From an uncultured Oscillospiraceae bacterium (GTDB lineage: Bacteria; Bacillota; Clostridia; Oscillospirales; Oscillospiraceae), in NCBI GenBank assembly GCA_947585425.1, contig CANPWZ010000001.1:70367-134366 (forward strand): a stretch of 64,000 nucleotides of DNA, written 5' to 3'. Of the stretch, positions 15,143 through 29,694 are shown in pieces. The position numbers were made by a program, and so were the translations under genes. Position 1 is the stretch's first letter. The number at the start of each line of letters is the position of its first letter. Under the pieces are notes generated by a model that saw only the letters and a list, made by a program, of their open reading frames with translations, had not been told where the DNA came from and searched no databases.

Positions 15143-15958
15143 TTATTTCCGCTTTTTCGCGGGCGGCTGGCCGGCGTCGGACTCCTTGACGAAGATACCC
15201 ACCAGTTCCCCGGCGTCGGGATCGGCCAGGTCCAGCACGAACAGCCGCCCTTTCAGGGTGGGGATGGGGTAGAACACATATTCCTGGCTGCGCTTTTTGC
15301 CGATGAGGTCCAGACACTGGGCGAAGCGGTCCAGCTTGGATTTGGGGAACAGGTAGTCGAAGTGGGCCAGCAGGAAGTGGTCGAAGGGCACGTCTTTCAG
15401 CCTCTCCAGGGTCTTTTTGTAGTCCTCCAGGGAGCTCTCCGGGAAGAACAGGCAGGCCTGGGGGGAGACGGCGTCCCCGGCCAGCAGGAGGCCGCGCTCC
15501 CGGACGAGCAGGCCCAGGCTGCCGGGGGTGTGGCCGGGCAGGGCGATGACCTCGGCGGTGAGGCCGCCCAGGTCGATGACCGTGCCGGGAGCGATGGGGC
15601 GGACCCGGCTTTTGTCGGCGAAGTTGGGCACCATGTAGGAGAAGTCCATCCCCTGGGTCTCCTCCAGGATGGGCAGCTCGCTGAGGCCCACGTCCATCAG
15701 GGGGAAGTCGGCCTCCGACAGATAGACTCGGTCGAACTGGCAGTTGCCGCCCACGTGATCGAAGTGGCAGTGGCTGTTGATGACCATGGGCGCATGATCG
15801 GTGAGCCCGGCCACATAGGAGCGCAGGTCCCCGATCCCCATCATGGTGTCGTACAGGATGGCGCCGGTGGCCCCCGCCAGCAGGGTGCAGAAATTGCCCC
15901 GCCCGTCCCCGATGTGGAACACGCCCTCCATGACCTCTCTGTGGCTCAGCCCTTCCAT
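15143..15958 (-). CDS. MBL-fold metallo-hydrolase
   Basis: HCHFDHVGG zinc motif and LPGHTPGS. ATG at 15958 preceded by GGAGGG. Confidence 0.8.
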   Translation of the reverse strand: MEGLSHREVMEGVFHIGDGRGNFCTLLAGATGAILYDTMMGIGDLRSYVAGLTDHAPMVINSHCHFDHVGGNCQFDRVYLSEADFPLMDVGLSELPILEETQGMDFSYMVPNFADKSRVRPIAPGTVIDLGGLTAEVIALPGHTPGSLGLLVRERGLLLAGDAVSPQACLFFPESSLEDYKKTLERLKDVPFDHFLLAHFDYLFPKSKLDRFAQCLDLIGKKRSQEYVFYPIPTLKGRLFVLDLADPDAGELVGIFVKESDAGQPPAKKRK

Positions 15959-16035
15959 GCCGGTCCCTCCCCGCGTTTTGGGAAATGGTAGCACGGAAGA
16001 GGGGCGGCTGTCAAGCGGGAAGAGACGGGAAAGGC

Positions 16036-16064
16036 TTGAAACCGCCGGGGATCCGTGATAAACT
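16036..16064 (+). promoter_or_regulatory. Candidate promoter of the PucR-type regulator (TTGAAA - 17 nt - TAAACT, TGn extended -10)
   Basis: Hexamers and spacing read directly from sequence. 32 nt upstream of the ATG at 16096. Confidence 0.4.
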
Positions 16065-16095
16065 AAACGGAAAGACAGAGAGAGGAGCGAGGCGG

Positions 16096-17337
16096 ATGGA
16101 GCGGATGACCCCCGAGCGGCTGGGGCGGGCCAGGGACGAGATGTTCCGGGCCCTTCAGACCAAGACCCCCCTGCGGCAGTTTTTACAGATCGCCCACGAG
16201 GCCACCGGCCTCCAGTTCAGCCTGTGCAGCGCCAGCTTCGCGGTGCTGGCCGCCTGCCCCGACATGGACGACGAGACCAACCTGGTCACCTCCGGCGGCC
16301 GGCAGTTCGTGCGCTTCGGCGTGACCCTGGAGATGGACGAGAAGCGGCACGTGAAGCGCCTTTTGGAGAGCACCCGGCCCAGCGTGTCCAACGACCCCCG
16401 CTTCCCCTATCCCATCCTGTTCCAGGCCATCCGCATCAACCAGGCCATGGTGGCCTATCTTTTCTCCCCCGGCCGGCCGGAGGGCTTTTTCCCGGAGGAG
16501 CTGGAGCTGGTGGAGTACCTGGCCCAGGTGCTGTCCATCGAGATGCAGAAGCAGGACTTTTTTGCCTCCGAGAGCGGCGTGAAATACGAGTACTTCCTGC
16601 TGGAGCTGCTGGAGAGCCGTCTGAAGAGCGAGACCTCCGCCGTCCAGCGGCTGCACCAGCTGGGCCGCAGGCCCCAGCCCTATTACTACCTGGCGGAGTT
16701 CACCTTTGACGACGTGAGCTCCCGCCCCTCGGGCAGCTATTTCTTCGACCAGCTGCTCTCCCTGTTCCCCGACAGCCTGGTGGGGCTCATCAAGGGCCGG
16801 ATGTGCATGCTGCTGCCCAGGGGCCAGATCGGCGCCCTCACCCCCTGGGAGGAGGAGGCGCTGAAGAGCTTTTTGGAGTTCAACCATATGCGGGTCAGCT
16901 TCAGCGACCGATTCACCTCCCTGCTGGCCGCCCCCTATGCCTGGGAGCAGGCCCGCCGGACCGCGGCGGAGGGCTCCGGCGAGGAGCGGGTGCGGTACTA
17001 TGAGCAGGTCCGCCTCTACCACCTGCTGGACCGGGTGGGGGACAGCGAGCTGCTGCGCTCCATGATCCACCCGGACGTGGAGCTGCTCCGCCGGTACGAC
17101 GGGGAGCATAACACCCACTATCTGGACACCCTCTGGGCCTATCTCGACGCCAACCGCAGCGCCGCCCAGGCGGCCTCCGCCCTGTTCATCCACAAGAGCA
17201 CCTTCTTCTTCCGCATGGGCAAGATCGCCGAGCTGGTGGGGGACGACGTGATGCGGGACGGGGAGCGGCTGTTCGACTATGAGCTGTCCCTGCGGCTGCT
17301 GGAATACCTCCACCGGGGGAGCGACCAGGAACATTAG
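16096..17337 (+). CDS. PucR-family transcriptional regulator (uncharacterised N-terminal sensor region plus C-terminal HTH)
   Basis: C-terminal PucR-type HTH YLDTLWAYLDANRSAAQAASALFIHKSTFFFRMGKIAELVG. Start at MERMTPERL after SD GAGGAG. Confidence 0.75.
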   Translation: MERMTPERLGRARDEMFRALQTKTPLRQFLQIAHEATGLQFSLCSASFAVLAACPDMDDETNLVTSGGRQFVRFGVTLEMDEKRHVKRLLESTRPSVSNDPRFPYPILFQAIRINQAMVAYLFSPGRPEGFFPEELELVEYLAQVLSIEMQKQDFFASESGVKYEYFLLELLESRLKSETSAVQRLHQLGRRPQPYYYLAEFTFDDVSSRPSGSYFFDQLLSLFPDSLVGLIKGRMCMLLPRGQIGALTPWEEEALKSFLEFNHMRVSFSDRFTSLLAAPYAWEQARRTAAEGSGEERVRYYEQVRLYHLLDRVGDSELLRSMIHPDVELLRRYDGEHNTHYLDTLWAYLDANRSAAQAASALFIHKSTFFFRMGKIAELVGDDVMRDGERLFDYELSLRLLEYLHRGSDQEH

Positions 17338-17390
17338 ACAAATGTCTGAAAAGAGGCCGTATTTTATATAAAGCATTTGACTGCTGTCGG

Positions 17391-17426
17391 ATGACGAAAC
17401 GGGCAAAGAGAATTATAATCATAATT
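17391..17426 (+). promoter_or_regulatory. Candidate operon promoter (ATGACG - 17 nt - TATAAT) overlapped by inverted repeat AATTAT-AATC-ATAATT
   Basis: -10 TATAAT at 17414-17419. The 6-4-6 palindrome at 17411-17426 overlaps it. Lies in the only AT-rich stretch upstream of the operon. Confidence 0.4.
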
Positions 17427-17526
17427 GAATAGATTGCACAAAGGAGCGCGGCAAAACTCTGGTGTTTATGGGGACAACTCACGATTTTACCGGCGCTCCC
17501 GTGTGAGCGGGCCGCCGGAGGCCGGA

Positions 17527-17569
17527 GCGGGGGAGACCCGCCCGGAGCCCCCGGCGCTTTGCGTTTTTT
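17527..17569 (+). terminator. Terminator-like element inside the operon leader (GC hairpin then TTTGCGTTTTTT)
   Basis: GCGGGGG (17527-33) pairs with CCCCC(G)GC (17548-55), followed by a T6 run at 17564-69. Two more GC hairpins follow at 17601-17618 and 17628-17642. Confidence 0.35.
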
Positions 17570-17673
17570 CAGACGGCAGTCTCGGTTCGTTCGTAATTTG
17601 GCCGCGCGGGCGGCCGCAAACATAGAGGGTCCGGCGGACCCGGGCCCTCAAGGAGAAAACAGGAGGTAATGTT

Positions 17674-18621
17674 ATGGCATTCAAAGTGATGGGCGTCTGC
17701 GGCGGACGCAGAGACGGAAACAGCGAGATCCTGACGAAAGAGGCTTTGCTGGCCTGCCAGGAGCTGGGCGCGGAGATCACCTACGTCAACCTGAACGACT
17801 ACAAGATCCTGGACTGCACCGGCTGCACCCACTGCACCCAGGGGATGTTCATGAAGGGCGAGAACGTGGGCTGTGTGCTGAAGAACGCGGACGACAAGGA
17901 CAAGCTGATGCAGGCCATGTTCGAGAACGACGCCTTCATCTTCGCCGCCCCCACCTACGATCTGCAGGTGTCGGCCAACTTCACCCGGTTCATGCAGCGC
18001 TCCCTGGCCTATGAGACCGCCTTCCTGGAGAAGATCGGCGCCATCAAGCCCAAGCACCGCATCGCCGGCCTGATCACCACCGGCGGTTCCACCCGGGCGT
18101 GGATGTCCATGTCCCTGGAGAACATGCAGGCCGCCATGTTCACCTGCGACTTCAACGTGATCGACATGATCCTGGCCACCCGGGTCCCCGCCAAGGGCCA
18201 CGTGCTCACCCGGCCCGAGCTCATTGAGCGGGCCCACAAGATGGGCGAGAACATCATGCGCTCCCTGAGCAAGGATCCCAAGGACCGGGGCTGGGAGGGC
18301 GACCCCGACTTCGGCTGGTGCCCCCACTGCCACTCCAACTCCCTGTCCCTGGGCGAGCCCCAGTGGGACGGCACCTACTACAAGGTGGAGTGCCAGGTGT
18401 GCGGCTGCGGCGGCGTGCTGAAGGAAGAGGACGGCAAGTGGAAGTTCGTCATCGACCCGGAGAACGGCCACCTGAAGGACCGCACCACCGTGGCGGGCCG
18501 CGGCCTCCATCTGGACGAGATCGGCACCACCGAGGGCGGCTTCTACCGCGATCCCCACAACTTCGAGATCGTCAAGGAGAAGATGCCCCGCTACAAGGAA
18601 ATGAAGTACAAGACCGTGTAA
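17674..18621 (+). CDS. Iron-sulfur-flavoprotein-like FMN reductase (flavodoxin fold) with a Cys-rich C-terminal zinc-ribbon-like domain; candidate flavonoid ene-reductase
   Basis: SD AGGAGG. N-terminal KVMGVCGGRRDGNSE flavodoxin-like start, compact Cys motif C48-x2-C51-x2-C54-x12-C67, C-terminal WCPHCH...ECQVCGCGG. Confidence 0.6.
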   Translation: MAFKVMGVCGGRRDGNSEILTKEALLACQELGAEITYVNLNDYKILDCTGCTHCTQGMFMKGENVGCVLKNADDKDKLMQAMFENDAFIFAAPTYDLQVSANFTRFMQRSLAYETAFLEKIGAIKPKHRIAGLITTGGSTRAWMSMSLENMQAAMFTCDFNVIDMILATRVPAKGHVLTRPELIERAHKMGENIMRSLSKDPKDRGWEGDPDFGWCPHCHSNSLSLGEPQWDGTYYKVECQVCGCGGVLKEEDGKWKFVIDPENGHLKDRTTVAGRGLHLDEIGTTEGGFYRDPHNFEIVKEKMPRYKEMKYKTV

Positions 18622-18664
18622 GTCATCAGGCACAAGTTTACATAATCTTTTAGGAGGTAACACC

Positions 18665-20143
18665 ATGAAGCAACTGGAAACCGATGTCATCGTCGTGGCC
18701 GCGGGTCTGAGCGGTCTGGCCGCCTGCTGCGCCGCCGCCGAGGGAGGCGCCCGGGTCGTCTGCTTTGAAAAAGCCAGCACCACCGGCGGCGCCGCCAACA
18801 TGGGCATGGGCCCCCTGGGCGTGGGCTCCCGCATCCAGCGCGAGCACATGATCCCCCTGAGCCCCATCGAGGCCTTCCGTAAGCATATGTATTTCACCCA
18901 CTACCATGTGGACCCCCGCCTGGTGCGCGACTACTACTTCAAGTCCGGCGACACCATCGACTGGCTGTGCAACATGGGCGTGGAGTTCGTGGGCGTGCAG
19001 CGGGCCTTCGGCGCAGACGAGGCCACCCGCCCCTATTCCGACGGCGAGTTCACCTGGCACGTCTGCAAGCCCGAGGGCGGCGGCGTTCCCGGCCCCCGCG
19101 CCGCCTCCGGCATGATGAAGAAGATGACCGAGTACGCCCAGAGCCTGGGCGTGGAGTTCTACCTGGAGACCCCCGTGAAGAAGCTCATCCAGGAGGACGG
19201 CGCCGTGGTGGGCGTCATCGCCGTGGACAAGAACGGCGAGGAGATCGAGTGCCGCGCGCCCTCCACCATCGTGGCCACCGGCGGCTTCGGCGACAACCCG
19301 GAGATGATCAAGGAGTACACCGGCTTCGAGTTCGGCAAGACCATCTTCAACTTCGCCGTGCCCGGCATGAAGGGCGACGGCATGAAGATGTGCTGGGAGG
19401 CGGGCGCCGCCAAGACCCCCATCATCATGGAGATCATGTACCAGCTGCCCGACAACATGAACCACTTTATCATCGAGGGCGCCTTCCGTCAGCCCTGCCT
19501 GTGGGTGGACCGCAACGGCAACCGCTTCATGCCCGAGGATCAGATCGGCAACACCACCTTCACCGGCAACGCCATCTCCCACCTCCCCGGCAAAGTGGCC
19601 TTCTCCATTTTCGACAGCAAGGCCCTCAAGCGCTATAAGAAGCACGGGCCCGACATCATCTCCCACGTCCATCCCCACGACCTGTACGACCACTTCGACG
19701 AGCAGTGGGAGCGGGATTTGGCCGCCGGCTACGAGCCCATCGCCCAGGGCGACACCATCGAGGAGCTGGCCAAAAACGCCGGCATCGACGTGGACGGCCT
19801 GGTGGCCCAGGTGGAGGAGTACAACGCCATGTGCGACGCCGGCTACGACGAGCTGTTCGAGAAGAACCGCGCCTATATGCAGAAGATCGAGAAGGGCCCC
19901 TTCTACTGCTGCCGCCAGACCGTGGGCGCTTACGGCTCCCTGGGCGGCGTGAAGATCAACCACAAGATGGAGGCCGTGAACGAGGACGCCCGTCCCATCC
20001 CCGGCCTGTACTGCGTGGGCACCGACGCCTGCTCCATCTACGGCGACTCCTATCCCTTCGTGCTGTCCGGCAACACCATGGGCTTCTGCCTGAACTCCGG
20101 CCGCATCGCCGGTGAGAACGCCGCGGCAAAGGTGGGCTTCTGA
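18665..20143 (+). CDS. FAD-dependent oxidoreductase, fumarate reductase/succinate dehydrogenase flavoprotein-like (FAD_binding_2), soluble
   Basis: SD AGGAGG. Dinucleotide fold DVIVVAAGLSGLAACCAAAEGG...EKASTTGGAA and C-terminal IPGLYCVGTDA...GNTMGFCLNSGRIAGENAA. Confidence 0.8.
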   Translation: MKQLETDVIVVAAGLSGLAACCAAAEGGARVVCFEKASTTGGAANMGMGPLGVGSRIQREHMIPLSPIEAFRKHMYFTHYHVDPRLVRDYYFKSGDTIDWLCNMGVEFVGVQRAFGADEATRPYSDGEFTWHVCKPEGGGVPGPRAASGMMKKMTEYAQSLGVEFYLETPVKKLIQEDGAVVGVIAVDKNGEEIECRAPSTIVATGGFGDNPEMIKEYTGFEFGKTIFNFAVPGMKGDGMKMCWEAGAAKTPIIMEIMYQLPDNMNHFIIEGAFRQPCLWVDRNGNRFMPEDQIGNTTFTGNAISHLPGKVAFSIFDSKALKRYKKHGPDIISHVHPHDLYDHFDEQWERDLAAGYEPIAQGDTIEELAKNAGIDVDGLVAQVEEYNAMCDAGYDELFEKNRAYMQKIEKGPFYCCRQTVGAYGSLGGVKINHKMEAVNEDARPIPGLYCVGTDACSIYGDSYPFVLSGNTMGFCLNSGRIAGENAAAKVGF

Positions 20144-20144
20144 T

Positions 20145-22277
20145 ATGGTGACGCTGACTGTCAACGGCCAGGTCATCCAGGCCGCCGAGGGGCAGTCGGT
20201 CCTCCACGCGGCGCTGGCGGCGGGGGTGTACATCCCCCATCTGTGCGACCACCCTGACCTGGAGGCCAAGGGCGGCTGCCGCCTGTGCAGCGTGACGGTG
20301 GACGGCGGGGACGTGCCTGTCCCCGCCTGCACCACCACCGTGGCTGAAGGCATGGTGGTGGACAGCAGGACCGAGGCCGCGGAGCTGACCCGCCGCACCT
20401 CCATGGAGCTGATGCTGGCCACCCATCCCGCCGACTGCACCGGCTGCCCCAAATACGGCAAGTGCGAGCTGCAGAGCCTCTATCAGTACATGGGGGTCAA
20501 CGGACAGGACTGGCGCATGAAGTCCCGCCCCGTCCCCAACAACGACTCCAACCCCCTGATCTCCCACCTGTTCACCCGCTGCATCCGCTGCGGCCGGTGC
20601 ATCCGCGCCTGCCAGGACCTGCGGGGCGTGAAGGTGCTGGACTACGTCCGGGACGGCGTGGGCGTCCACGCCGGGGTGCCCGGGGGCAAGAGCCTGGTGG
20701 AGGCGGGCTGCCGCTTCTGCGGGGCCTGCATCGAGGTGTGTCCCACCGGCTCCATCGTGGACGCGGTAGGCGTGATGGAGAAACACCCCGCCTACGCCGA
20801 CAACGTGGTGCCCTGCCGGGCCGAGTGCCCCGCCCACACCAATATCCCGGAGTACATCCGGGCGGTCCGGGAGGGGAGACCCGGCGACGCGGTGGCCATC
20901 ATGCGGGAGAAGCTGACCTTCCCGCTGACTTTGGGCTACATCTGCAACCACCTGTGCGAGACGGGCTGCAAGCGCACCGACGTGAACGACCCCCTGTCCA
21001 TCCGCAACCTGAAACGCTTTGCCGTGGAGAACGACAAGGAGCAGGCTTGGAAGGACAAGGGATTTCGGAAACCCCGCACCGGCAAGCGGGTGGCGGTGGT
21101 GGGTTCCGGGCCCTGCGGCCTGACGGCGGCCTACTACCTGAACAAGCTGGGCCACGACGTGACCGTTTTCGAGAAGCGGCCCCAGCTGGGCGGCCCCATG
21201 ACCAGCGGCATCCCGGCCTACCGGCTGCCCATCGAGGGGGTCAACGCCGAGATCCAGTACATCATCGACTCCGGCGTGAAGTACGAGGTCAACCACGAGG
21301 TGTCCGATGCGGCGGCCCTGAAGAAGGACTACGACGCCGTGCTGGTGGCGGTGGGCGTGTCCAAGGGCAAGAAGTTGGGCTTCCTGCCGGGGGCCGATTT
21401 CGACCAGGTGTACACCGCCATCGACGTGCTGGCCGACCTGCGGGCGAACAAGGACATTTCCTATCTGGGCCAGACGGTGTGCGTGATCGGCGGCGGCTCG
21501 GTGGGGTTCGACGCGGCCCGGTCCCTGGTGCGGAAGGGCCTGACGGTGAACCTGGCCTGCATCGAGCCGGCGGACAAGATATTGGCGGACAAGGAGGACC
21601 AGGTGGAGGGCGCCGAGGAGGGCGTGAACATTCTGCCGGGGCGGTCCTTCGAGGAGATCGAGGGCAGCCAGAAGCAGGTCACGGGTCTGCGGGTCCACAC
21701 GGTGAAGTCCTCCACCTATGACCGGGCCACGGGCAAGGTGACGGAGGTGGCCGTGGAGGGGAGCCAGACGGTGATCCCCTGCGACAGCGTGATCTTCGCC
21801 ACGGGGCAGTACACCGGGCTCCAGGACTTTGAGAACTTCGGCATCGAGCTGAACCGGATGGGCTATCCCATCGACCCGGAGACGGGGAAAAGCGGCTTCA
21901 GGACCAGCGTGGAGGGCATCTTCGCGGCGGGCGACGCCATCACGGGGATCAGCTTCGTGATCAAGGCCATCGCGTCGGGCCGGGAGGTGACGTCGGTCAT
22001 CGACAAGTACCTGGGCGGCGACGGGGACATCGAGGAGACCCTGGTGGAGCGTACGGCCGATCCCCACATCGGGGAGTTCCCTGGGTTCGGGACGCTGCCG
22101 CGCATCGAGATGGACGTGGTGGACCCCGCGACCCGTGTCAAGAACGGGGACGAGAACGTCTACAAGACCTATACCTGCGAGCAGGCCCGCTGCGAGGCCC
22201 AGCGCTGCCTCCAGTGCGATCTGCGGCTCCAGCTGGAGACGGTGAAGCTCTGGAACGAATACGGAGGTGGCGAGTGA
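20145..22277 (+). CDS. Fusion oxidoreductase: NuoG/HydA-type N-terminus ([2Fe-2S], His-ligated [4Fe-4S], 2x[4Fe-4S]) plus GltD/NfnB-like NAD(P)H-FAD module
   Basis: ATG 1 nt after the upstream stop. Motifs CDHPDLEAKGGCRLC, HPADCTGCPKYGKCELQ, CIRCGRCIRAC, CRFCGACIEVCP, then CRAECPAHTNIPEY, LCETGCKR, VAVVGSGPCGLTAAYYL and GIPAYRLP. Confidence 0.8.
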   Translation: MVTLTVNGQVIQAAEGQSVLHAALAAGVYIPHLCDHPDLEAKGGCRLCSVTVDGGDVPVPACTTTVAEGMVVDSRTEAAELTRRTSMELMLATHPADCTGCPKYGKCELQSLYQYMGVNGQDWRMKSRPVPNNDSNPLISHLFTRCIRCGRCIRACQDLRGVKVLDYVRDGVGVHAGVPGGKSLVEAGCRFCGACIEVCPTGSIVDAVGVMEKHPAYADNVVPCRAECPAHTNIPEYIRAVREGRPGDAVAIMREKLTFPLTLGYICNHLCETGCKRTDVNDPLSIRNLKRFAVENDKEQAWKDKGFRKPRTGKRVAVVGSGPCGLTAAYYLNKLGHDVTVFEKRPQLGGPMTSGIPAYRLPIEGVNAEIQYIIDSGVKYEVNHEVSDAAALKKDYDAVLVAVGVSKGKKLGFLPGADFDQVYTAIDVLADLRANKDISYLGQTVCVIGGGSVGFDAARSLVRKGLTVNLACIEPADKILADKEDQVEGAEEGVNILPGRSFEEIEGSQKQVTGLRVHTVKSSTYDRATGKVTEVAVEGSQTVIPCDSVIFATGQYTGLQDFENFGIELNRMGYPIDPETGKSGFRTSVEGIFAAGDAITGISFVIKAIASGREVTSVIDKYLGGDGDIEETLVERTADPHIGEFPGFGTLPRIEMDVVDPATRVKNGDENVYKTYTCEQARCEAQRCLQCDLRLQLETVKLWNEYGGGE

Positions 22278-22843
22278 TGGAGGAGAGACTGTTGGACCTG
22301 CCGGAGACCTGCTGCCCTGTGGACGAGCTGCTGAAATACGTCCGGGGCCACAAATGCCTGGACTGCGGCAAGTGCGTCTTTGGCTATGAGGGCGCCGCCC
22401 AGCTGGAGATGACCCTGAACGACATCACCATGAAGAAAAGCCGCGGCTCCGACATGGACCAGCTCCGCAAGCTGTGCGGCCTGATGAAGACCCAGGCGCT
22501 GTGCGAGGACGGCGTGGAGCTGGCCGATACCGCCCTGGCGGTGATGGAGAAATACGCCGACGAGTTCGCCCAGCATGTGGCCAAGCGGAGCTGCAAGGCC
22601 GGCGTGTGCAAGCGGTTCGTCACCTACCACATCCTGGCCGACAAGTGCGTCGGCTGCGGCGACTGCATGGACGCCTGCGAGGACGATGCCATCCAGGGCC
22701 GCGCCAAATTCATCCATGTCATCGACCAGGATGAGTGCACCCAGTGCGGCAAGTGCAAGGAGGCCTGCGAGGAGGACGCCATCGTGGTGGCCGGCGCCAT
22801 CAAGCCCCGGTGCCCGCCCAGGCCCATCCCCTGCCGCCGCTGA
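22277..22843 (+). CDS. Fe-S protein: NuoF-type [4Fe-4S] binding region plus 2x[4Fe-4S] ferredoxin domain, without an NADH/FMN domain
   Basis: ATGA start/stop overlap at 22275-22279. Motifs CLDCGKC...C, then CVGCGDCMDAC and CTQCGKCKEAC. Confidence 0.7.
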   Translation: MEERLLDLPETCCPVDELLKYVRGHKCLDCGKCVFGYEGAAQLEMTLNDITMKKSRGSDMDQLRKLCGLMKTQALCEDGVELADTALAVMEKYADEFAQHVAKRSCKAGVCKRFVTYHILADKCVGCGDCMDACEDDAIQGRAKFIHVIDQDECTQCGKCKEACEEDAIVVAGAIKPRCPPRPIPCRR

Positions 22844-22860
22844 CGGCGGCCCACATTCCT

Positions 22861-22888
22861 TTGGGATCTGATTTAAGATCAATATAAA
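22861..22888 (+). promoter_or_regulatory. Weak candidate internal promoter (TTGGGA - 16 nt - TATAAA) ahead of the carrier-protein module
   Basis: Sits in the only AT-rich gap inside the operon (22844-22919) and follows a GC hairpin that overlaps the upstream stop codon. Confidence 0.3.
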
Positions 22889-22919
22889 ACCAACAAATTT
22901 TTTAAGGAGGTCATTTATC

Positions 22920-23159
22920 ATGGAAGAGCGTACCAATGTTTATGAGAAGATCGTGGAGCGGCTGACCGCCATGCTGGGCGCGAAGGACTACACCGAGGCC
23001 ACCGCCTTTGCCGACCTGGGCATGAAGTCCGTGAACTATTCCTCTATGATCAACGTGCTGGAGGACGAGTTCGACGTGGAGATCCCCTTCATGGATTTCC
23101 GCCGCAAGGCCACCATCGGCGAGGCTGTCGATTTTGTTTGCAATCTGATCGACGGCTGA
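22920..23159 (+). CDS. Acyl/peptidyl carrier protein (79 aa) with a non-canonical attachment motif
   Basis: SD AAGGAGG. ACP/DltC-like helix pattern ADLGMKS(37)VNYSSMINVLEDEFDVEIPFMDF. The Ser is in the canonical position but is preceded by K rather than D. Confidence 0.7.
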   Translation: MEERTNVYEKIVERLTAMLGAKDYTEATAFADLGMKSVNYSSMINVLEDEFDVEIPFMDFRRKATIGEAVDFVCNLIDG

Positions 23160-23174
23160 GAAAGGAGTACCTGA

Positions 23175-24941
23175 ATGGAATCCAAAGGTATGTCCAACGG
23201 CCATGAGATCTTCTCTGAGAAGAGGGTCATGAAGGGGGAGGAGATCGAGGTCTTCTACCGCCAGGCCCGCACTCCCGTGGACCCCGAGGAGGGGCTGGAC
23301 CTCTCCAAACTGGAGGGCATCGCCTCCACCGCCCACGGCTTCTGCGCCAAGTTCAACCAGCGCACCTATATGACCGAGGACGGCCTCATCTGCGAGCAGG
23401 ACGTCCCCGTCATCCTCCGGGACGGCACCAAGATCTACACCGACATCTACCGCCCCAACACCACCGAGAAGGTCCCCGTGCTGATCTCCTGGAGCTACTA
23501 CGGCAAGCGCCCCGGCGACGGCATGAGCGAGTGGCAGGTGATGGGCGTGGCCCCCGGCACCATCTCCACCATGGCCAAGTTCGAGTCCCCCGACCCCGGC
23601 TTCTGGTGCCACAACGGCTATGCCATCGCCAACGTTGACCCCCGCGGCACCGGCCACTCCGAGGGCGACATCGACATGTTCGGCTCCATCGACGCCCAGG
23701 ACGGCTACGACTTCATCGAGTGGGTCGCCCAGCAGCCCTGGTGTTCCGGCAAGGTGGGCATGGGCGGCAACTCCTGCGTGGCCATGACCCAGGTCCGCAT
23801 CGCCGCCACCCAGCCCCCCCATCTGGCCTGCATCGCCCCCTGGGAGGCCACCTGCGACATCTACCGCGAGTCCATCTACGAGGGCGGCATCCCGGCCCTG
23901 AGCTTCAACGAGTTCATCGTGGCCTCCCTCACCGGCCCCAACAAGATCGACGACCAGGTGGAGAACGGCCGCCGCTATCCCCTGATGAACGGCTACTGGG
24001 AGGACAAGATCCCCGACTTCAAGAAGATCCGCATCCCCGTGTACGCCTGCGCGTCCTGGCAGCATTTCCATCTCCACGGCTCCTTCAACTTCTTCCGCAA
24101 GATCCGCTCCACCAAGAAGTGGATGCGGGCCCACCGGGAGCAGGAGTGGCCCGATCTGTACAACACCGCCCACGCCATGGACCTCAAGAACTTCTACGAT
24201 CGGTTCCTGAAGGACGTCCACAACTGCTTCGAGATGACCCCCCGCTATCGGATCGAGGTCATGGACGCCTACGACTACGACTATCAGACCGACCGGCCTG
24301 AAAAGGAGTTCCCCCTGGCCCGGACCCAGTACAAGAAGCTGTACCTCAACGCCGCCGACGGCTCCCTCAACTGGGAGAATCCCGCGGTGGAGAGCAAGGT
24401 CAGCTATGAGTCCAACACCGAGCAGGTCAACTTCGACATCAAGTTCGAGGAGGACACCGAGATCACCGGCTACATGAAGCTCCGCATGTGGGTGGAGGCC
24501 GACGGTCACGACGACATGGACCTGTTCATCACCATCAAGAAGCTGGACGAGGACGGCAACTGGCTGCCCACCAGCATCCTGGGCGAGCCGCACCCCGGCA
24601 CTTGGGGCAAGCTGCGCGTGTCCCACCGGGAGCTGGATCCCAAGCTGTCCACCGACTTTGAGCCCGTCCTGTCCCACAAGCGGGAGCTGAAGCTGAAGAA
24701 GGGCGAGATCGTCCCCGTGGACATCGCCCTGGTGCCCACCAGCTGGATCTGGCACAAGGGCCAGCAGCTCCGGGTGGAGGTGGCCGGCCGCTACATCCGC
24801 GAGGGCTGGTTCGAGCCGCTGACCTGGGAGACCGACAACCACGGCCAGCACATCATCCACACCGGCGGGCAGTATGAGAGCTATCTCCAGATCCCCGTCA
24901 TCCCGCCCAAGTATAAGGCGGGCGACTACACTTATCGCTGA
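23175..24941 (+). CDS. CocE/NonD-family alpha/beta serine hydrolase (Peptidase_S15-like plus C-terminal jelly-roll), cytoplasmic
   Basis: SD AAAGGAG. Motifs YGKRPGD, NVDPRGTGHSEGD and nucleophile elbow VGMGGNSCVAMTQ (compare CocE GVSYLGVTQ). About 588 aa, no signal peptide. Confidence 0.75.
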   Translation: MESKGMSNGHEIFSEKRVMKGEEIEVFYRQARTPVDPEEGLDLSKLEGIASTAHGFCAKFNQRTYMTEDGLICEQDVPVILRDGTKIYTDIYRPNTTEKVPVLISWSYYGKRPGDGMSEWQVMGVAPGTISTMAKFESPDPGFWCHNGYAIANVDPRGTGHSEGDIDMFGSIDAQDGYDFIEWVAQQPWCSGKVGMGGNSCVAMTQVRIAATQPPHLACIAPWEATCDIYRESIYEGGIPALSFNEFIVASLTGPNKIDDQVENGRRYPLMNGYWEDKIPDFKKIRIPVYACASWQHFHLHGSFNFFRKIRSTKKWMRAHREQEWPDLYNTAHAMDLKNFYDRFLKDVHNCFEMTPRYRIEVMDAYDYDYQTDRPEKEFPLARTQYKKLYLNAADGSLNWENPAVESKVSYESNTEQVNFDIKFEEDTEITGYMKLRMWVEADGHDDMDLFITIKKLDEDGNWLPTSILGEPHPGTWGKLRVSHRELDPKLSTDFEPVLSHKRELKLKKGEIVPVDIALVPTSWIWHKGQQLRVEVAGRYIREGWFEPLTWETDNHGQHIIHTGGQYESYLQIPVIPPKYKAGDYTYR

Positions 24942-24956
24942 TAGGAGGAATGTGCC

Positions 24957-25955
24957 ATGGGTATGATGGATGAGATCCTGCGGAAGGCCAAGGCCGATCC
25001 GCAGATCGTGGCGTTCCCCGAGATCGGCGAGGAGAAGATCCTGAAGGCGGCGCAGGAATGCGCCGCCCAGGGGATCTGCAAGCCCATGCTGGTGGGCAAG
25101 GGCGAGGAGATCAAGGCCGCCGTGGCCCAGTTCGGCATCGATATGACCGGCATCTCCGTGTTCGACACCACCGATGAACACGCCTGCGAGGAGGTCTTCA
25201 ACGCCTACGGCGCGGTGAATACCGAGATGAGCGCCAAGGCCATCCGCCGCAAGGCCAAGGACGATATGTATGTTGCCCTGATGATGCTGGCCATCGGCAA
25301 GGTGGACGTGATGTTCGCCGGCATGAGCCACACCACCGGCGAGGTCATCTGGGGCGGCCAGTCCATCGTGGGCCTGAAAGAAGGCGTCACCACCGTGTCC
25401 AGCATCGGCGTGTCCCAGATCCCCGGCTGGAACGGCAGCGAGGGCGACCTGCTCATCATCGGCGACAGCGCCGTGTGCGTCAATCCCGACCCCGCCGATC
25501 TGGCCTCCATCGCCGTGTCCGCCTGCGACACCGCCCGGGACCTGCTGGGCTGGGAGCCCCGCTGCGCCATGGTGTCCTACTCCACCGACGGCAGCGCCGA
25601 GAGCGAGCTGGTGGACAAGGTGCGCAAGGGCGTGGAGATCGCCCGGCAGATGCGGCCCACCTACGCCATCGACGGCGAGTTCCAGCTGGACGCCGCCATC
25701 GTCCCCGCCGTGGCCGCCAAGAAGGTCAAGCGGGAGAGCCCGGTGGCCGGCAAGGCCAACATCATCATCTGGCCCGACCTGAACGTGGGCAACATCGGCG
25801 TGAAGCTGCTGCAGATCTTCGGCCATGCCGACGCCTATGGCCCCGTGCTCCAGGGCTTCAAGAAGATCGTGTGCGACTGCTCCCGCAGCGCCCCCGTGTC
25901 CGAGATCGTGGGCAATGTGGCCATCGCCGGCGTCCGCGCCCAGAACAATAAGTGA
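24957..25955 (+). CDS. Phosphate acyltransferase of the Pta/Ptb family
   Basis: SD AGGAGG. Motifs IVAFPEIGEEKILKAA, DGEFQLDAAIVPAVAAKK, VAGKANIIIWPDLNVGNIGVKLLQ, GPVLQGF. Confidence 0.85.
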   Translation: MGMMDEILRKAKADPQIVAFPEIGEEKILKAAQECAAQGICKPMLVGKGEEIKAAVAQFGIDMTGISVFDTTDEHACEEVFNAYGAVNTEMSAKAIRRKAKDDMYVALMMLAIGKVDVMFAGMSHTTGEVIWGGQSIVGLKEGVTTVSSIGVSQIPGWNGSEGDLLIIGDSAVCVNPDPADLASIAVSACDTARDLLGWEPRCAMVSYSTDGSAESELVDKVRKGVEIARQMRPTYAIDGEFQLDAAIVPAVAAKKVKRESPVAGKANIIIWPDLNVGNIGVKLLQIFGHADAYGPVLQGFKKIVCDCSRSAPVSEIVGNVAIAGVRAQNNK

Positions 25956-25958
25956 CCC

Positions 25959-27059
25959 GTGAAGGTATTTGCCATCAATCCCGGCTCCACCTCCACCAAG
26001 ATCGCCCTGTTCGAGGACGATCAGAAGCTGTTTCAAAAGAACGTGGACCACGACGCCGGGGAACTCAAAAAGTTTAAAGAGATCGCCGACCAGCTCCCCT
26101 TCCGCATGGAGACCATCCTGGCGGAGGTGGAGGCGGCGGGGATCGACCTGTCCCAGGTGGACGCCTGGGCCGCCAGGGGCGGCGGACTGGTGGGCCTGGT
26201 CAGCGGCGTGTACGCCATCAACGACGTGATGCTGCGGGACGCCCGGGCCTGCGTCACCCGGCACCCCAACACCCTGGGGGTGCAGATCGCCCTGGAGCTG
26301 CAAAAGCGGTACGGCGGGGAGATGTTCTGCGTCAATCCCCCCGACGTGGACGAGCTGGACGACGTGGAGCGGATCACCGGCTTCCACGAGGTCTTTCGCC
26401 AGAGCAAGGGCCACCCCCTGAACCAGAAGGAGAACTGCATCCGCTACGCCGCCGCCCAGGGCAGACAGTATGAGGACATGAACCTCATCTGCTGCCACAT
26501 CGGCGGGGGCGTGTCGGTGGCGGCCCATCGGAAGGGGCAGCTCTGCTGCTGCAACGACGCCCTCAACGGCGACGGCCCCATGGCCCCCACCCGGGCCGGC
26601 TGGGTCCCCGCCACCGACGTGATCCGCATGAGCTTTTCCGGCAAATTCACCGAGAAGGAGCTCATCGACCGGGTGATGAAGCACGGCGGCCTGGTGGACC
26701 ACCTGGGCACCGCCGACGCCCGGGAGATCGTGGAGCGCATCCAAAAGGGCGATAAGTACGCCAAGCTGGTGTACGACGCGTTCATCCGCCAGCTGGCCAA
26801 GGCGGTGGGCGGCTGCGCCGCCGTCCTGGAGGGCAAAGTGGACGCCATCATCTTCACCGGCGGCATCGCCCACGACAAATACCTGGTGGACGAGTTGAGC
26901 CGGTACGTGGGCTGGATCGCCCCCATCTCCGTCCAGGCGGGCGAGTTCGAGATGGAGGCCCTGGCCGCCGGCGCCATCCGCGCCCTGAAGGGCGAGGAGC
27001 GCGTCAGGCAGTACACCGGGGTGCCCGTTTTCGAGAACTTCGACCACTTGAAAAGCTGA
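25959..27059 (+). CDS. Butyrate-kinase-family acyl kinase (ASKHA)
   Basis: GTG start 3 nt after the Pta/Ptb stop. Motifs KVFAINPGSTSTKIALFED, CCHIGGGVSVAAH, IIFTGGIAHDKYLV. Confidence 0.85.
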   Translation: MKVFAINPGSTSTKIALFEDDQKLFQKNVDHDAGELKKFKEIADQLPFRMETILAEVEAAGIDLSQVDAWAARGGGLVGLVSGVYAINDVMLRDARACVTRHPNTLGVQIALELQKRYGGEMFCVNPPDVDELDDVERITGFHEVFRQSKGHPLNQKENCIRYAAAQGRQYEDMNLICCHIGGGVSVAAHRKGQLCCCNDALNGDGPMAPTRAGWVPATDVIRMSFSGKFTEKELIDRVMKHGGLVDHLGTADAREIVERIQKGDKYAKLVYDAFIRQLAKAVGGCAAVLEGKVDAIIFTGGIAHDKYLVDELSRYVGWIAPISVQAGEFEMEALAAGAIRALKGEERVRQYTGVPVFENFDHLKS

Positions 27060-27097
27060 AAAAAGCGCGGGAGCCGCGAGGCTCCCGCGCTTTCATT
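27060..27097. terminator. Operon terminator AGCGCGGGAGCC-GCGA-GGCTCCCGCGCT
   Basis: 12-bp GC stem directly after the kinase stop, with an A-run upstream and TTCATT downstream. Confidence 0.8.
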
Positions 27098-27139
27098 GAA
27101 AAAATCGCTAATTCCGCGGGAATTATTAACGATTTTTTG

Positions 27140-27168
27140 TTGCATTTTCCAAACTGATATGTTACAAT
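27140..27168 (+). promoter_or_regulatory. Promoter TTGCAT - 17 nt - TACAAT for the transporter gene
   Basis: Hexamers and spacer counted directly from sequence. Confidence 0.6.
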
Positions 27169-27174
27169 GTACCC

Positions 27175-27349
27175 AGCGTATCCTGATGTCCCGGAGTTGA
27201 GAAAGAGAGCCGCGCCCCTTTGCGGCGGGTTTTCGGGAGTGAGGAGCGAAAAAAGGAGAGGAGAGCGCAAACAGTCCGGGGCGGCTCTGCCGCCGGTCCT
27301 TGGAGAGGGACCTGAAAAACTACTACACTACTTATCAGAGGTGTTATTC
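27175..27349 (+). promoter_or_regulatory. Structured 5' leader of about 175 nt of the MFS transporter (class unknown)
   Basis: Nested helices: TCCCG (27198-27202) / CGGGA (27233-27237) enclosing CCGC/GCGG; CCGG(G)GCGGC/GCCGCCGG hairpin at 27275-27295; GGTCC-N8-GGACC hairpin at 27295-27312. Purine-rich tract at 27235-27266. No ATG-initiated ORF after the predicted TSS. Confidence 0.35.
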
Positions 27350-28696
27350 ATGCAGCAAAAGACCAAACTTGGCATCAACTTTGGCTTCCGCGGCTGGATG
27401 CTGATGATCTTTGAGATCTCGGCGTTCCTGGTGTTCCAGGCGTTCACCAACTTCCCGATGAACATGCTGGCGGGCTATTACACCCACCTGGATGACGCGG
27501 TGGCCGGCCAGCAGCTGGCTCCCATCATGACCATCGGTACCCTGGTGGGCATCGTGATCCAGCTGGTGCTGTCCAACTTCCTGGGCAAGATGAAGAGCGT
27601 GAAGCCCATGGTCCTGGGCTTCGGCGTGCTCACCCTGCTGTCCGCCCTGGGCGTGGCCGCCCTGCCCTACGGCACCCCCTGGAAGATCTGCTACTTCCTG
27701 GTGTCCGTGTTCTCCAACATCTACGGCATGTTCGGCATCGGCATCCTGATCGGCCAGTGGTTCCCCACCCGCAAGGGCGTGTTCATGGGCATCGCCACCT
27801 TCGCGTTCCCCGTGTGCAACGGTCTGATGGGCCCCTTCGCCGCTCTGGTGTTCCCCGCCAACGCCGCCCCCAACCCCTTCATGGGCTTCCTGCCCTTCCT
27901 GATCGTGGGCGTCATCGGCTGGGTCCTGGGCCTCATCTTCATCTCCGACTATCCTGAGCAGGTCGGCTGCTTCCGCGACAACGACAAGTCCTTCACCAAG
28001 GAGAAGGCCGACGCCATGCTGGCCGAGGAGATCGAGAACAAGAAGACCACCGTGTGGAAGCTCCCCAACACCCTGAAGTGCAGCCAGTTCTGGCTGATCA
28101 CCATCCCCATGGGCACCCTGCTGATGTGCTCCGTGGGTATGATGACCCAGACCCAGGCCATCATCGGCGCTTATGAGCTGAACTTCGGCCAGGTCATGGG
28201 CATGGTCATGATCTTCGCCCTCATCGGCTCCTATGTCCTGGGCCTGATCGACGGCAAGTTCGGCACCAAGACCGCCATCCTGATCTCCGAGATCATCATG
28301 CTGCTCTCCGGCATCCTGGGCGGCATCGGCAAGCCCGCCACCGCCATGATCTCCATCATCCTGCTGGCCATCTTCATGGGCGCCGGCTCCAACTTCACCG
28401 TGTCCGGCGCGGCCCAGTACTGGCGCCGTGAGGACTTCTCCACCGTGTTCGGCATCGTGAACCCCATCGCCAACATCCTGCAGTGCGTGGGTCCCACCGT
28501 GGTGGCCATGACCATCGCCATCGGCTCTCAGAACGGCCTGGGCGTGACCCTGCCCTTCTGGGTGACCGCCGTCATCGCCCTGATCTCCGTCATCCTGGTC
28601 GCCGCGTTCCAGCCCAGCAAGGTCAAGGCCGCTGACGACAAGTACCGTCAGGCCGCCGGCAAGCCCCTGGACGACGCTCTGGTGGGCCGCAAGTAA
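27350..28696 (+). CDS. MFS transporter (about 448 aa, about 12 TM; oxalate/formate-antiporter-like organisation)
   Basis: Start at MQQKTKLGINFGFRGW after SD GAGGTG. Uniformly hydrophobic with two 6-TM halves separated by a charged loop (DKSFTKEKADAMLAEEIENKK). Confidence 0.75.
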   Translation: MQQKTKLGINFGFRGWMLMIFEISAFLVFQAFTNFPMNMLAGYYTHLDDAVAGQQLAPIMTIGTLVGIVIQLVLSNFLGKMKSVKPMVLGFGVLTLLSALGVAALPYGTPWKICYFLVSVFSNIYGMFGIGILIGQWFPTRKGVFMGIATFAFPVCNGLMGPFAALVFPANAAPNPFMGFLPFLIVGVIGWVLGLIFISDYPEQVGCFRDNDKSFTKEKADAMLAEEIENKKTTVWKLPNTLKCSQFWLITIPMGTLLMCSVGMMTQTQAIIGAYELNFGQVMGMVMIFALIGSYVLGLIDGKFGTKTAILISEIIMLLSGILGGIGKPATAMISIILLAIFMGAGSNFTVSGAAQYWRREDFSTVFGIVNPIANILQCVGPTVVAMTIAIGSQNGLGVTLPFWVTAVIALISVILVAAFQPSKVKAADDKYRQAAGKPLDDALVGRK

Positions 28697-28730
28697 GACC
28701 TGCCCTACGTTTGCCTGTCATCTCTTTACA

Positions 28731-28765
28731 AGAGGCGCCGCCCGGCCGGGCGGCGCCTCTTTGTG
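28731..28765 (+). terminator. Intrinsic terminator AGAGGCGCCGCCCGG/CCGGGCGGCGCCTCT followed by TTTGTG
   Basis: 15-nt perfect inverted repeat, 35 nt after the transporter stop. Confidence 0.75.
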
Positions 28766-28796
28766 CCCGGAAGGCGCAAAAATATCCAAACGGCAG

Positions 28797-28825
28797 TTGA
28801 CATGAGGGGGACAAATTTGTATAAT
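28797..28825 (+). promoter_or_regulatory. Perfect consensus promoter TTGACA - 17 nt - TATAAT with TG immediately upstream of the -10
   Basis: Read directly from sequence. 36 nt upstream of the chalcone isomerase ATG. Confidence 0.75.
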
Positions 28826-28860
28826 TGTATCAGCACTACCATACGAAAGGAGTTTATATT

Positions 28861-29694
28861 ATGGCTTTTGAGTATCGCCCCATGCGCAGCGTCATCTTCG
28901 TGGACGTGGTCCGCGAGGAGTACCGTCACCGCCTCCAGCACTGGCTGTATTCTGTCCATGTGCCCGACAGCATCAGCAAGTTTGCCCCCTACTGCAACAA
29001 GTACACCTTCTACACCGCTCTGCCCACTCCTCCCGAGGGGGAGCGCTTCGGCACCCGCCGGATGCAGATGACCGAGCACTACTGGATGGTCAACGAGCTG
29101 ACCCCCGAGATGAGCGTCAACTCCTTCACCGAGCGGATGCCGCCCCACGTCCTCCGCTGGCAGGGCATGATCCCCGATGTGGACGGCCTGGACGACACCA
29201 ACATGGACGGCGACGAGCACCGCAGGTCCGGCGGCGGCGACACCGGCATGCCTCCCTTCGTGTTTGCCCATGTGCCCATCAACTGGCAGTATGACTACAA
29301 GGGCAAGGGCCGCACCATCGACGACGGGCCCAACTACCGCTGGCAGTTCGTGGTCCGCTGGCCCGACAAGGAGGCCGGCGAAAAGTGGTTCAACGAGGTG
29401 TTCGTGCCCTACTTCGTGGGCCGTCCCGAGGTCAACCGCTTCGTCTCCAGCGACATCTATCAGGATGTGGCCGGCTGCGCCTTCAACCGCCTGGTGGAGA
29501 TGTGGTTCGACGGGCCCGACGAGTGGTACGCCGCCGCGGTGGAGGGCACCAAGGGCATGGAAAAGCCCGCCTGGGCCCAGCAGGACCAGTTCCCCTTCCT
29601 GAAGCCCAACTTCTACATCGTCAGCATGTTCCTGTCCGACATGGCCACCAGCGACAACCTGACCCAGTACCGGGGCTATCTCCAGATGCGCTGA
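28861..29694 (+). CDS. chi: Bacterial-type chalcone isomerase (Eubacterium ramulus / Flavonifractor CHI family)
   Basis: SD GAAAGGAG. About 277 aa. Recognised from memory of the E. ramulus enzyme: N-terminal PMRSVIFVDVV...Y..RLQHWLY.VH(I/V)PDSIS.F.PY, RMQMTEHYW, and C-terminal KPAWAQQDQFPFLKP...NLTQYRGYLQMR. Needs BLAST confirmation. Confidence 0.75.
   Translation: MAFEYRPMRSVIFVDVVREEYRHRLQHWLYSVHVPDSISKFAPYCNKYTFYTALPTPPEGERFGTRRMQMTEHYWMVNELTPEMSVNSFTERMPPHVLRWQGMIPDVDGLDDTNMDGDEHRRSGGGDTGMPPFVFAHVPINWQYDYKGKGRTIDDGPNYRWQFVVRWPDKEAGEKWFNEVFVPYFVGRPEVNRFVSSDIYQDVAGCAFNRLVEMWFDGPDEWYAAAVEGTKGMEKPAWAQQDQFPFLKPNFYIVSMFLSDMATSDNLTQYRGYLQMR

Follow-up and report, generated by a model that had tools for sequence, protein, structure and literature searches.

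A proposed carrier-protein-dependent, ATP-forming cleavage module in a candidate flavonoid catabolic island of an uncultured Oscillospiraceae bacterium

Described routes of acyl-phloroglucinol cleavage

The known flavone/flavanone pathway proceeds through FLR, CHI, Fcr/ERED and Phy. Phy from Eubacterium ramulus and the DAPG hydrolase PhlG cleave the C-C bond of acyl-phloroglucinols and release phloroglucinol. Both enzymes use water, so the energy of the bond is lost. Cleavage of C-C bonds by alpha/beta-hydrolases through an acyl-enzyme has its precedent in the meta-cleavage-product hydrolases BphD and MhpC. The transfer of phloroglucinol C-acyl groups onto a thiol has its precedent in the Pseudomonas acyltransferase PhlACB, which moves these groups via a cysteine thioester and accepts thioester donors. 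By analogy, these two properties of PhlACB suggest that the acyl-phloroglucinol bond has a transfer potential at the level of a thioester. To our knowledge, PlsX provides the sole well-established case of acyl-ACP phosphorolysis, and no CocE/NonD enzyme is known to us to act on C-C bonds or to work with a carrier protein. Literature searches found no description of a carrier-protein route to ATP in flavonoid breakdown.

The gene island and its four-gene unit

The window, i.e. the whole 64-kb stretch of DNA that was analysed, originates from an uncultured Oscillospiraceae bacterium. A sequence-only reading had pointed to a tight row of genes for an acyl carrier protein (ACP), a CocE/NonD hydrolase (HYD), a Pta/Ptb-type enzyme and a Buk-type kinase. 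This row was recovered at the same positions as four open reading frames on the + strand, separated by gaps of 15, 15 and 3 nt. It is embedded in the following island:

15143..15994, - strand, metallo-beta-lactamase-fold protein (PF00753, E 1.3e-14), left edge of the island
15985..17337, + strand, PucR/CdaR-type transcriptional regulator (PF13556 HTH_30, E 1.9e-13)
17674..18621, + strand, FLR-like FMN ene-reductase, a paralogue of flavone reductase (PF03358)
18665..20143, + strand, soluble FAD ene-reductase (FADred) of the fumarate reductase family (PF00890, E 4.6e-53)
20112..22277, + strand, Fe-S / GltD-like NAD(P)H oxidoreductase (Fer2_4, NADH-G_4Fe-4S_3, Fer4_20, Pyr_redox_2)
22214..22843, + strand, ferredoxin-like subunit with a NuoF C-terminal 4Fe-4S domain and two 4Fe-4S clusters (PF10589, PF00037)
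22920..23159, + strand, dedicated ACP, 79 aa (PF00550, E 1.1e-6; attachment serine S37)
23175..24941, + strand, CocE/NonD alpha/beta serine hydrolase HYD, 588 aa (PF02129 Peptidase_S15, E 6.4e-42; PF08530 PepX_C, E 2.6e-33)
24957..25955, + strand, Pta-like phosphotransacylase, 332 aa (PF01515, E 3.7e-86)
25959..27059, + strand, acyl kinase of the butyrate kinase family (BUK), 366 aa (TIGR02707, 409 bits, equivalog cut-off 289)
27167..28696, + strand, MFS transporter (PF07690, E 4.6e-15), true start probably internal, near residue 62
28825..29694, + strand, bacterial chalcone isomerase CHI (PF18232, E 6.6e-55), likely start at the ATG near 28861

A promoter-like site is located near the FLR-like gene (17391-17419) and a sigma-70 consensus promoter (12/12) precedes CHI (28797-28825). 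As the sequence-only reading had stated for the operon, no CoA-transferase, CoA-ligase or thiolase was found among the genes of the island (15143-29694).

All genomic predictions of that reading held when 80 related loci were compared. These loci come from genomes of several phyla, between which the identity of HYD homologues is 60-90%. Of the 80, 71 contain ACP, 68 PTA and 65 BUK. All four genes occur together in 59, and their arrangement is therefore not due to chance. Co-conservation of the ACP gene, which had been put forward as a test, is borne out by these 71 hydrolase loci, and three of the nine loci without ACP end at a contig edge. A dedicated AcpS-type phosphopantetheinyl transferase (PF01648) is encoded in 45/80 loci, usually between HYD and PTA; no AcpS gene was found in the 64-kb window. 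In-frame ACP-HYD fusions mark one subfamily and were identified in four loci (L075, L077-L079) and in 18 independently called database proteins, four of which are tandem ACP-ACP-HYD fusions. Among the flanking genes, a homologue of the PucR/CdaR-type regulator borders the cluster in 50/80 loci, homologues of the metallo-beta-lactamase-fold protein adjoin PTA/BUK in two (L018 and L006), and MFS transporters of other types come after BUK in 16.

The carrier protein scores above the gathering threshold of PF00550 and combines the PP-binding fold with a serine for cofactor attachment, S37 in DLGMKSVNYS, whose conservation among 71 homologues is at least 90%. It falls below every NCBIfam AcpP cut-off (at best 35 bits for NF002150, cut-off 66, and 32 bits for TIGR00517, cut-off 70.45), which indicates a divergent carrier protein and rules out the AcpP of fatty acid synthesis in favor of a specialised carrier. 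Its phosphopantetheinylation is predicted, indirectly, from the AcpS genes of the related clusters. HYD is a CocE/NonD member (TIGR00976, 232 bits, cut-off 66) whose confident AlphaFold (AF2) model (pLDDT 85.9) retrieves 3III with Foldseek (TM 0.82-0.86). S200 lies in the motif GGNSCVA at the nucleophile elbow, and H320 follows strand 315-320. Both residues are invariant and are likely the nucleophile and the histidine in this model. The canonical CocE acid position is taken by His297, in a WQHFH stretch that follows strand 289-294 and holds no acid residue, which leaves the assignment of the triad incomplete; the likely candidate acid is the invariant E224, after strand 217-223.

The Pta-like enzyme resembles Pta more than Ptb, with scores below both equivalog cut-offs. 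In M. thermophila numbering, the catalytic residues are conserved among the 66 clade members compared (S309 in 65, R310 in 66, E or D at D316). R87 and R133, which are part of the lower-affinity CoA site 2, are arginine in none of them; residue roles follow PMC6461089. The window encodes N88 and W132 at these positions, in contrast to the four PDB Ptas compared residue by residue, all of which have both arginines. The enzyme thus lacks the CoA-binding arginines of the PTA_PTB family, and their loss is suggestive, though not proof, of a non-CoA thiol substrate.

Two members of the known flavonoid pathway, FLR and CHI, have homologues in the cluster. The FLR-like protein has 7D38-7D3B as its only PDB relatives (E 1.2e-29 over residues 4-288); the FLR paper (PMC7862272) refers to 7D38. 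CHI matches E. ramulus CHI over its full length (4D06/3ZPH, E 3.5e-87). FLR-like genes occur in 31/80 loci and FADred genes in 23. The best NCBIfam match of the FAD ene-reductase is the vinyl phenol reductase VprA (304 bits, below cut-off) and its PDB matches are 1QO8 (E 2e-39) and urocanate reductase 6T85, making it a candidate chalcone (or enoyl) reductase. The Fe-S / GltD-like oxidoreductase (28/80 loci) probably supplies the reductases with electrons; the ferredoxin-like subunit is found in 18/80. No Phy-like annotation was found among the annotated genes of the island; Flavonifractor-type genomes may also carry Phy. Phloroglucinol-pathway genes were not found in the 64-kb window either. 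They lie within 8 kb of the cluster in 12/80 loci. In L003 and L004, relatives with a 90% identical hydrolase, the genes run on as BUK-PGR-DPGC-TAL, and L082 carries the single gene string ACP-HYD-AcpS-Cupin-PGR-TfD-DPGC-TAL (gene set compared with PMC10470551). Altogether, 36/80 loci contain a flavonoid- or phloroglucinol-linked gene. In many 'core-only' loci (Slackia, Collinsella, Oscillospiraceae), flavonoid genes are absent from the surrounding 8 kb, so that the module may act on a wider range of substrates or on another one.

Proposed reaction sequence and competing interpretations

The explanation that we favor as a whole, with moderate confidence, is that the island (about 15143-29694) serves flavonoid catabolism and that its final step falls to the four genes, whose products ACP, HYD, Pta and Buk would take the role of phloretin hydrolase. 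From their homologies, the FLR-like reductase would convert flavones or flavonols to flavanones or flavanonols, CHI would open or rearrange the C-ring, and the FAD ene-reductase, fed by the Fe-S NAD(P)H module, would yield a dihydrochalcone-type acyl-phloroglucinol. HYD, as a putative C-C cleaving acyltransferase, would then attack the aryl-ketone carbonyl with Ser200, freeing phloroglucinol and leaving an acyl-enzyme. The dedicated ACP in its holo form, and not water, would accept the acyl group on its phosphopantetheine thiol. The Pta-like enzyme, a putative acyl-ACP:phosphate transacylase, would phosphorolyse acyl-S-ACP to an acyl phosphate, from which the butyrate-type kinase would form ATP and free arylpropionate or a related acid. 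The chemistry proposed in the sequence-only reading is thereby partly supported, as acyl transfer to ACP, acyl-ACP phosphorolysis and ATP formation are steps that we infer from the genes. Among the substrates it named, the acyl-phloroglucinols and dihydrochalcones agree with the FLR homologue, the CHI gene directly downstream and the phloroglucinol genes of related loci, none of which that reading had cited; a chlorogenic-type ester is not favored.

The same machinery and energy logic could serve another flavonoid-derived substrate, which we regard as unlikely although worth considering: an alphitonin-derived alpha-diketone or alpha-hydroxy-dihydrochalcone from the flavonol route, an acyl-resorcinol derived from isoflavones, or an unreduced chalcone giving cinnamoyl-ACP that the FAD reductase would reduce afterwards. 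CHI also turns taxifolin into alphitonin, for which the cleaving enzyme is still missing, and the FADred family mostly reduces alpha,beta-unsaturated acids. Several genomes contain two or three paralogous HYD clusters (e.g. L021/L022/L047, L015/L039, L006/L080) and the FLR-like and FADred genes each form two subfamilies, suggesting several specificities; Slackia equolifaciens has a core-only cluster. These data do not, however, discriminate among the candidate substrates, and the absence of the reductase from core-only loci implies that the module can do without reducing an ACP-bound enoyl group.

Two further interpretations depart from the energy-conserving scheme itself. The reversibility of Pta and Buk reactions would allow kinase and Pta to spend ATP on charging ACP with an aromatic acid, HYD acting as acyltransferase or thioesterase, either for acylation of an acceptor or for a thioester-dependent reduction by the flavoprotein. 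The fold match to CocE/NonD relatives that catalyse acyl transfer (alpha-amino acid ester hydrolases) and the likeness of the FAD reductase and its Fe-S partners to thioester-dependent enoate respiration fit such a direction. It is nevertheless very unlikely given the catabolic context, with CHI, FLR and the phloroglucinol pathway sharing operons, and the core loci devoid of any reductase; an ATP-consuming loop ending in hydrolysis would moreover be futile. The least probable interpretation is that HYD is an ordinary esterase or peptidase that frees the acid next to unrelated ACP, Pta and Buk genes, cleavage conserving no energy. All characterised family members are indeed plain hydrolases and sources list the protein as 'predicted acyl esterase', but the ACP-HYD and ACP-ACP-HYD fusions, the dedicated AcpS of related loci, the near-universal co-occurrence across phyla and the lost CoA arginines of the Pta clade all speak against it.

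If the favored carrier-protein route is correct, one ATP would be gained per flavonoid, compared with none with phloretin hydrolase, and the module might also supply the enzyme that is still missing for the cleavage of alphitonin in the flavonol route. The chances are about even that it represents a mode of substrate-level phosphorylation not described before, in which a 'thiolytic' acyl-phloroglucinol C-C cleavage onto ACP is followed by a CoA-independent Pta-family transacylase and a Buk-family kinase forming ATP, and which occurs widely among gut, rumen, sediment and groundwater anaerobes from at least four phyla.

Comparison with known systems

The module resembles Phy and PhlG in the cleavage and the phloroglucinol release proposed for it, and would occupy the pathway position of Phy, after FLR, CHI and the ene-reductase. 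In place of these water-using enzymes, which are unrelated to HYD in fold, the module would employ an alpha/beta serine hydrolase assisted by carrier protein, phosphotransacylase and kinase. BphD, MhpC and PhlACB belong to other families than the module's and operate without carrier protein and without ATP-forming steps. HYD shares its fold and nucleophile elbow with CocE/NonD hydrolases (S. aureus SACOL2612 3IB3/3III, cocaine esterase, alpha-amino acid ester hydrolases) and differs from them by about 70 additional, highly conserved N-terminal residues, the missing Asp at the CocE acid position, a linked or fused carrier protein and a proposed C-C rather than ester substrate.

With the Pta-Ack and Ptb-Buk systems of substrate-level phosphorylation, the module has in common two enzyme families and the final chemistry from thioester to acyl phosphate to ATP. 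Its thiol carrier would be protein-bound phosphopantetheine instead of CoA, its Pta lacks the CoA-binding arginines and its thioester would stem from C-C cleavage, in contrast to the 2-oxoacid or beta-oxidation origin in those systems. The interconversion of acyl-ACP, acyl phosphate and free acid is shared with PlsX and the fatty acid kinase FakAB. PlsX, however, belongs to another Pfam family and handles long-chain acyl groups in lipid synthesis, whereas the present module, encoded in a catabolic operon, pairs a Pta-type member of PF01515 with a kinase of the Buk family and would generate ATP.

The four-gene core and its distribution

The sequence-only reading had placed a carrier protein, a hydrolase, a phosphotransacylase and an acyl kinase in tandem. 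All four ORFs are indeed present on the + strand, separated by gaps of 15, 15 and 3 nt in a window of about 65% G+C, which matches a 64-kb contig (L002) from an uncultured Oscillospiraceae MAG of rabbit gut:

22920-23159, + strand: acyl carrier protein (ACP)-like ORF; PF00550 match, below all AcpP equivalog cut-offs
23175-24941, + strand: CocE/NonD hydrolase (HYD) ORF; PF02129, PF08530, TIGR00976
24957-25955, + strand: Pta-like (PTA) ORF; PF01515, below the pta and ptb equivalog cut-offs
25959-27059, + strand: kinase (BUK) ORF; above the butyrate-kinase equivalog cut-off

These family assignments are solid on sequence grounds. The comparison set consisted of 80 genome loci encoding HYD homologues at 60-100% identity (handles of the L003 type), from Clostridia, Coriobacteriia, Deltaproteobacteria/Thermodesulfobacteriota and Chloroflexi/Dehalococcoidia. 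A homologous ACP is encoded in 71 of the 80 loci, almost always immediately 5' of the hydrolase gene, and three of the nine ACP-less loci are truncated where their contig starts. Of the same 80 loci, 68 have Pta, 65 have Buk and 59 have the complete set of four, which bears out the co-conservation of the carrier gene with the other three that the sequence-only reading required. Many loci hold the core set alone (regulator, ACP, HYD, AcpS, PTA, BUK and MFS transporter). Among cultured bacteria, carriers of the cluster include Flavonifractor sp. AGMB03687, Slackia equolifaciens DSM 24851, Konateibacter massiliensis and Anaerobacterium chartisolvens. In a collection of 185,579 species genomes, 393 of 465 pattern-matched stretches encode a HYD relative. 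The family is very conserved and is named in the sources only as 'CocE/NonD hydrolase' or 'predicted acyl esterase'.

Two to three paralogous hydrolase clusters occur in single genomes (L021/L022/L047, L015/L039, L006/L080, L011/L028, L013/L031 and L041/L042). Compared with the window enzyme, their hydrolases show identities of about 77% and 65%, and some copies lack an ACP of their own, which suggests several substrate specificities with shared carrier components.

Flavonoid and phloroglucinol genes around the core

The first two genes of the operon encode a regulator of the PucR type and an FMN_red protein whose sole PDB relative is 7D38-7D3B (E 1.2e-29); 7D38 is FLR, a flavone reductase from Flavonifractor plautii (PMC7862272). 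They are followed by genes for a flavoprotein of the fumarate/urocanate reductase family and for two Fe-S/NAD(P)H subunits. As listed, the Fe-S/GltD-like ORF (20112-22277) and the ferredoxin-like ORF (22214-22843) overlap by 64 nt; the true start of the latter, whose product is longer in relatives (368 aa in L081), probably lies downstream. The kinase gene is followed by an MFS transporter and then by chalcone isomerase (CHI), preceded by a promoter:

28797-28825, + strand: sigma-70 promoter of the CHI gene, perfect TTGACA-17-TATAAT
28825-29694, + strand: full-length chalcone isomerase of the Eubacterium ramulus type; PF18232 E 6.6e-55, PDB 4D06 E 3.5e-87

The listed TTG start of CHI overlaps the -10 box, so that the real start is probably an ATG near 28861. 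The MFS ORF (27167-28696) is listed with a start about 60 codons before the first hydrophobic segment; its leading residues (MYPAYPDVPELRKRAAP...) look non-coding and the likely start is therefore the internal Met in ...FMQQKTKLG. The island (about 15143-29694) is flanked by rpoD, with a strong terminator, and by a RluD-like gene, and the window outside it looks like housekeeping genes. At its edge, the island encodes a protein of the metallo-beta-lactamase fold (15143-15994, - strand), which may be an accessory pathway enzyme; homologues lie directly 3' of PTA/BUK in two distant loci (L018, 10755-11603; L006, 12003-12857).

No phloroglucinol-pathway genes were found in the 64-kb window. In L003 and L004, whose hydrolases are 90% identical to that of the window, the operon runs on as BUK-PGR-DPGC-TAL, and the termite-gut locus L082 carries the string PTA-BUK-FLR-like-transporter-ACP-HYD-AcpS-Cupin-SDR-3HCDH-Cyclase-BKACE. 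SDR, 3HCDH, Cyclase and BKACE are the families of the Clostridium scatologenes phloroglucinol degradation enzymes PGR, TfD, DPGC and TAL, respectively (PMC10470551). A phloroglucinol-pathway gene lies at most 8 kb away in 12 of the 80 loci, an FLR-like gene is present in 31, and 36 have one or more genes linked to flavonoids or phloroglucinol. This gene context gives the predicted substrate class of the module. In Vallitaleaceae (L081, 1-4473; L010), the cluster stands beside a BKACE enzyme, an NfnAB-like pair and a two-subunit CoA-transferase, which look like a variant downstream route for phloroglucinol-derived beta-keto acids.

Carrier protein, hydrolase and Pta-like enzyme

The ACP serine (S37 in the window) is conserved in at least 90% of homologues. 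A PF01648 protein of about 130 aa, by its family an AcpS-type phosphopantetheinyl transferase (PPTase), is encoded in 45 of the 80 loci, mostly between the hydrolase and Pta genes. L003 carries its AcpS gene (1940-2335) in the space that separates the regulator gene from the FLR-like one. No AcpS gene was found in the window, nor in particular in the 336-nt spacer at the matching place (17338-17673), so that a PPTase from another part of the genome must modify its ACP.

Four Lachnospiraceae loci (L075, L077-L079) have the ACP joined in frame to the N-terminus of the hydrolase; they belong with the database proteins P0182, P0185, P0200 and P0208 to a Lachnospiraceae/Roseburia-type subfamily with such fusions. 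A second protein search returned 18 proteins, each called independently and 700 aa or longer; every one is an ACP-hydrolase fusion, and four have a tandem ACP-ACP-hydrolase arrangement. Elsewhere, tandem carrier domains typify high-throughput PKS and PUFA synthases. Co-conservation, the AcpS of the clusters, the fusions and the kept ACP serine together argue for direct interplay between ACP and hydrolase.

Computed from 58 sequences, the AlphaFold model of HYD has good confidence (pLDDT 85.9, pTM 0.88). It places S200 in a nucleophile elbow after strand 190-199 and the invariant H320 at the end of strand 315-320. WQHFH occupies the stretch after strand 289-294 where the acid usually lies, and the likely candidate for the triad acid in this model is E224, which is invariant and follows strand 217-223. 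The closest structure is the uncharacterised Staphylococcus aureus SACOL2612 (3III, TM 0.82-0.86), with cocaine esterase and alpha-amino acid ester hydrolases ranking next; in a PDB profile search, the CocE alignment stops short of the Asp/His region. HYD also has about 70 extra, highly conserved N-terminal residues.

The Pta-like protein was aligned to Methanosarcina thermophila Pta, whose numbering is used here, and 66 cluster Ptas were compared. The catalytic R310 is present in all 66 and S309 in at least 65, and position 316 is Glu or Asp. The R87 position is never Arg (N, S, Y, H, E or P), nor is the R133 position (M, L, W, I, Y or V); at these two positions the window protein carries N88 and W132 in its own numbering. 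All four PDB Ptas compared residue by residue have both arginines, whereas the cluster Ptas have neither. R87 and R133 form CoA site 2 of Pta, their mutation raises the Km, and the Porphyromonas gingivalis enzyme binds acetyl-CoA there (PMC6461089). Their systematic loss fits, without proving, a thiol substrate without the nucleotide part of CoA.

Predicted route and its alternatives

In the proposed route, the FLR-like enzyme would reduce a flavone or flavonol to a flavanone or flavanonol, CHI would convert this product to a chalcone, and the FAD ene-reductase, with Fe-S electron input, would yield a dihydrochalcone. HYD would then cut the acyl-phloroglucinol via acyl-Ser200 and hand the acyl group to holo-ACP, Pta would phosphorolyse acyl-ACP and the kinase would form ATP. 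Of this carrier-protein-dependent substrate-level phosphorylation, already proposed by the sequence-only reading, the gene coupling stands by co-conservation, AcpS and fusions, and every chemical step is one that we infer. In the PhlACB acyltransferase, acyl groups pass between acyl-phloroglucinols and thiols, which makes it seem feasible to keep the bond as a thioester.

The CocE/NonD enzyme most likely yields phloroglucinol. A ring-cleaving role on dihydrophloroglucinol or 1,3-cyclohexanedione (resorcinol pathway) was rejected since the cyclase-type ring hydrolase DPGC adjoins HYD in the same operons; HYD thus would not open the reduced ring and would act upstream of phloroglucinol. The substrate may instead be a chalcone, an acyl-resorcinol or a flavonol/alphitonin-derived intermediate, the enzyme cleaving the last being still missing from the known pathway; the paralogous clusters found within one genome and the split of the reductases into two subfamilies point to several specificities. 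The chlorogenic-type esters of the sequence-only reading found no support, and acetyl esters were likewise discarded: flavonoid and phloroglucinol genes prevail in the neighbourhoods, which hold no esterase-substrate context. The catabolic context and the ACP-HYD fusions make it less likely that HYD is a plain esterase, or that the module runs in the reverse, ATP-consuming direction. The PucR regulator and the GltD-like subunit hinted at a purine, pyrimidine, nicotinate or glycine-reductase-type pathway, which was set aside for want of matching enzymes.

A review dated August 2026 names only FLR, CHI, Fcr and phloretin hydrolase (Phy) as flavonoid pathway enzymes, and no description of a carrier-protein system for flavonoid cleavage was found in full-text searches of openly accessible literature. 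If true, the ACP-dependent phosphorolytic route would be a new type of substrate-level phosphorylation, in which carrier proteins and a CoA-independent Pta enzyme would serve catabolism. It would assign a function to the hydrolase family, supply a candidate for the alphitonin-cleaving step in quercetin degradation and offer a genomic marker of flavonoid-fermenting bacteria for microbiome data. Of the plant polyphenols that arrive at anaerobes in gut and soil, flavonoids rank among the most abundant, and the one ATP per molecule that the proposed route would give would help explain fermenters living on them. The four-gene module would occupy the place of phloretin hydrolase in the known route (FLR, CHI, Fcr, Phy), in which no energy is gained at the inter-ring cleavage.
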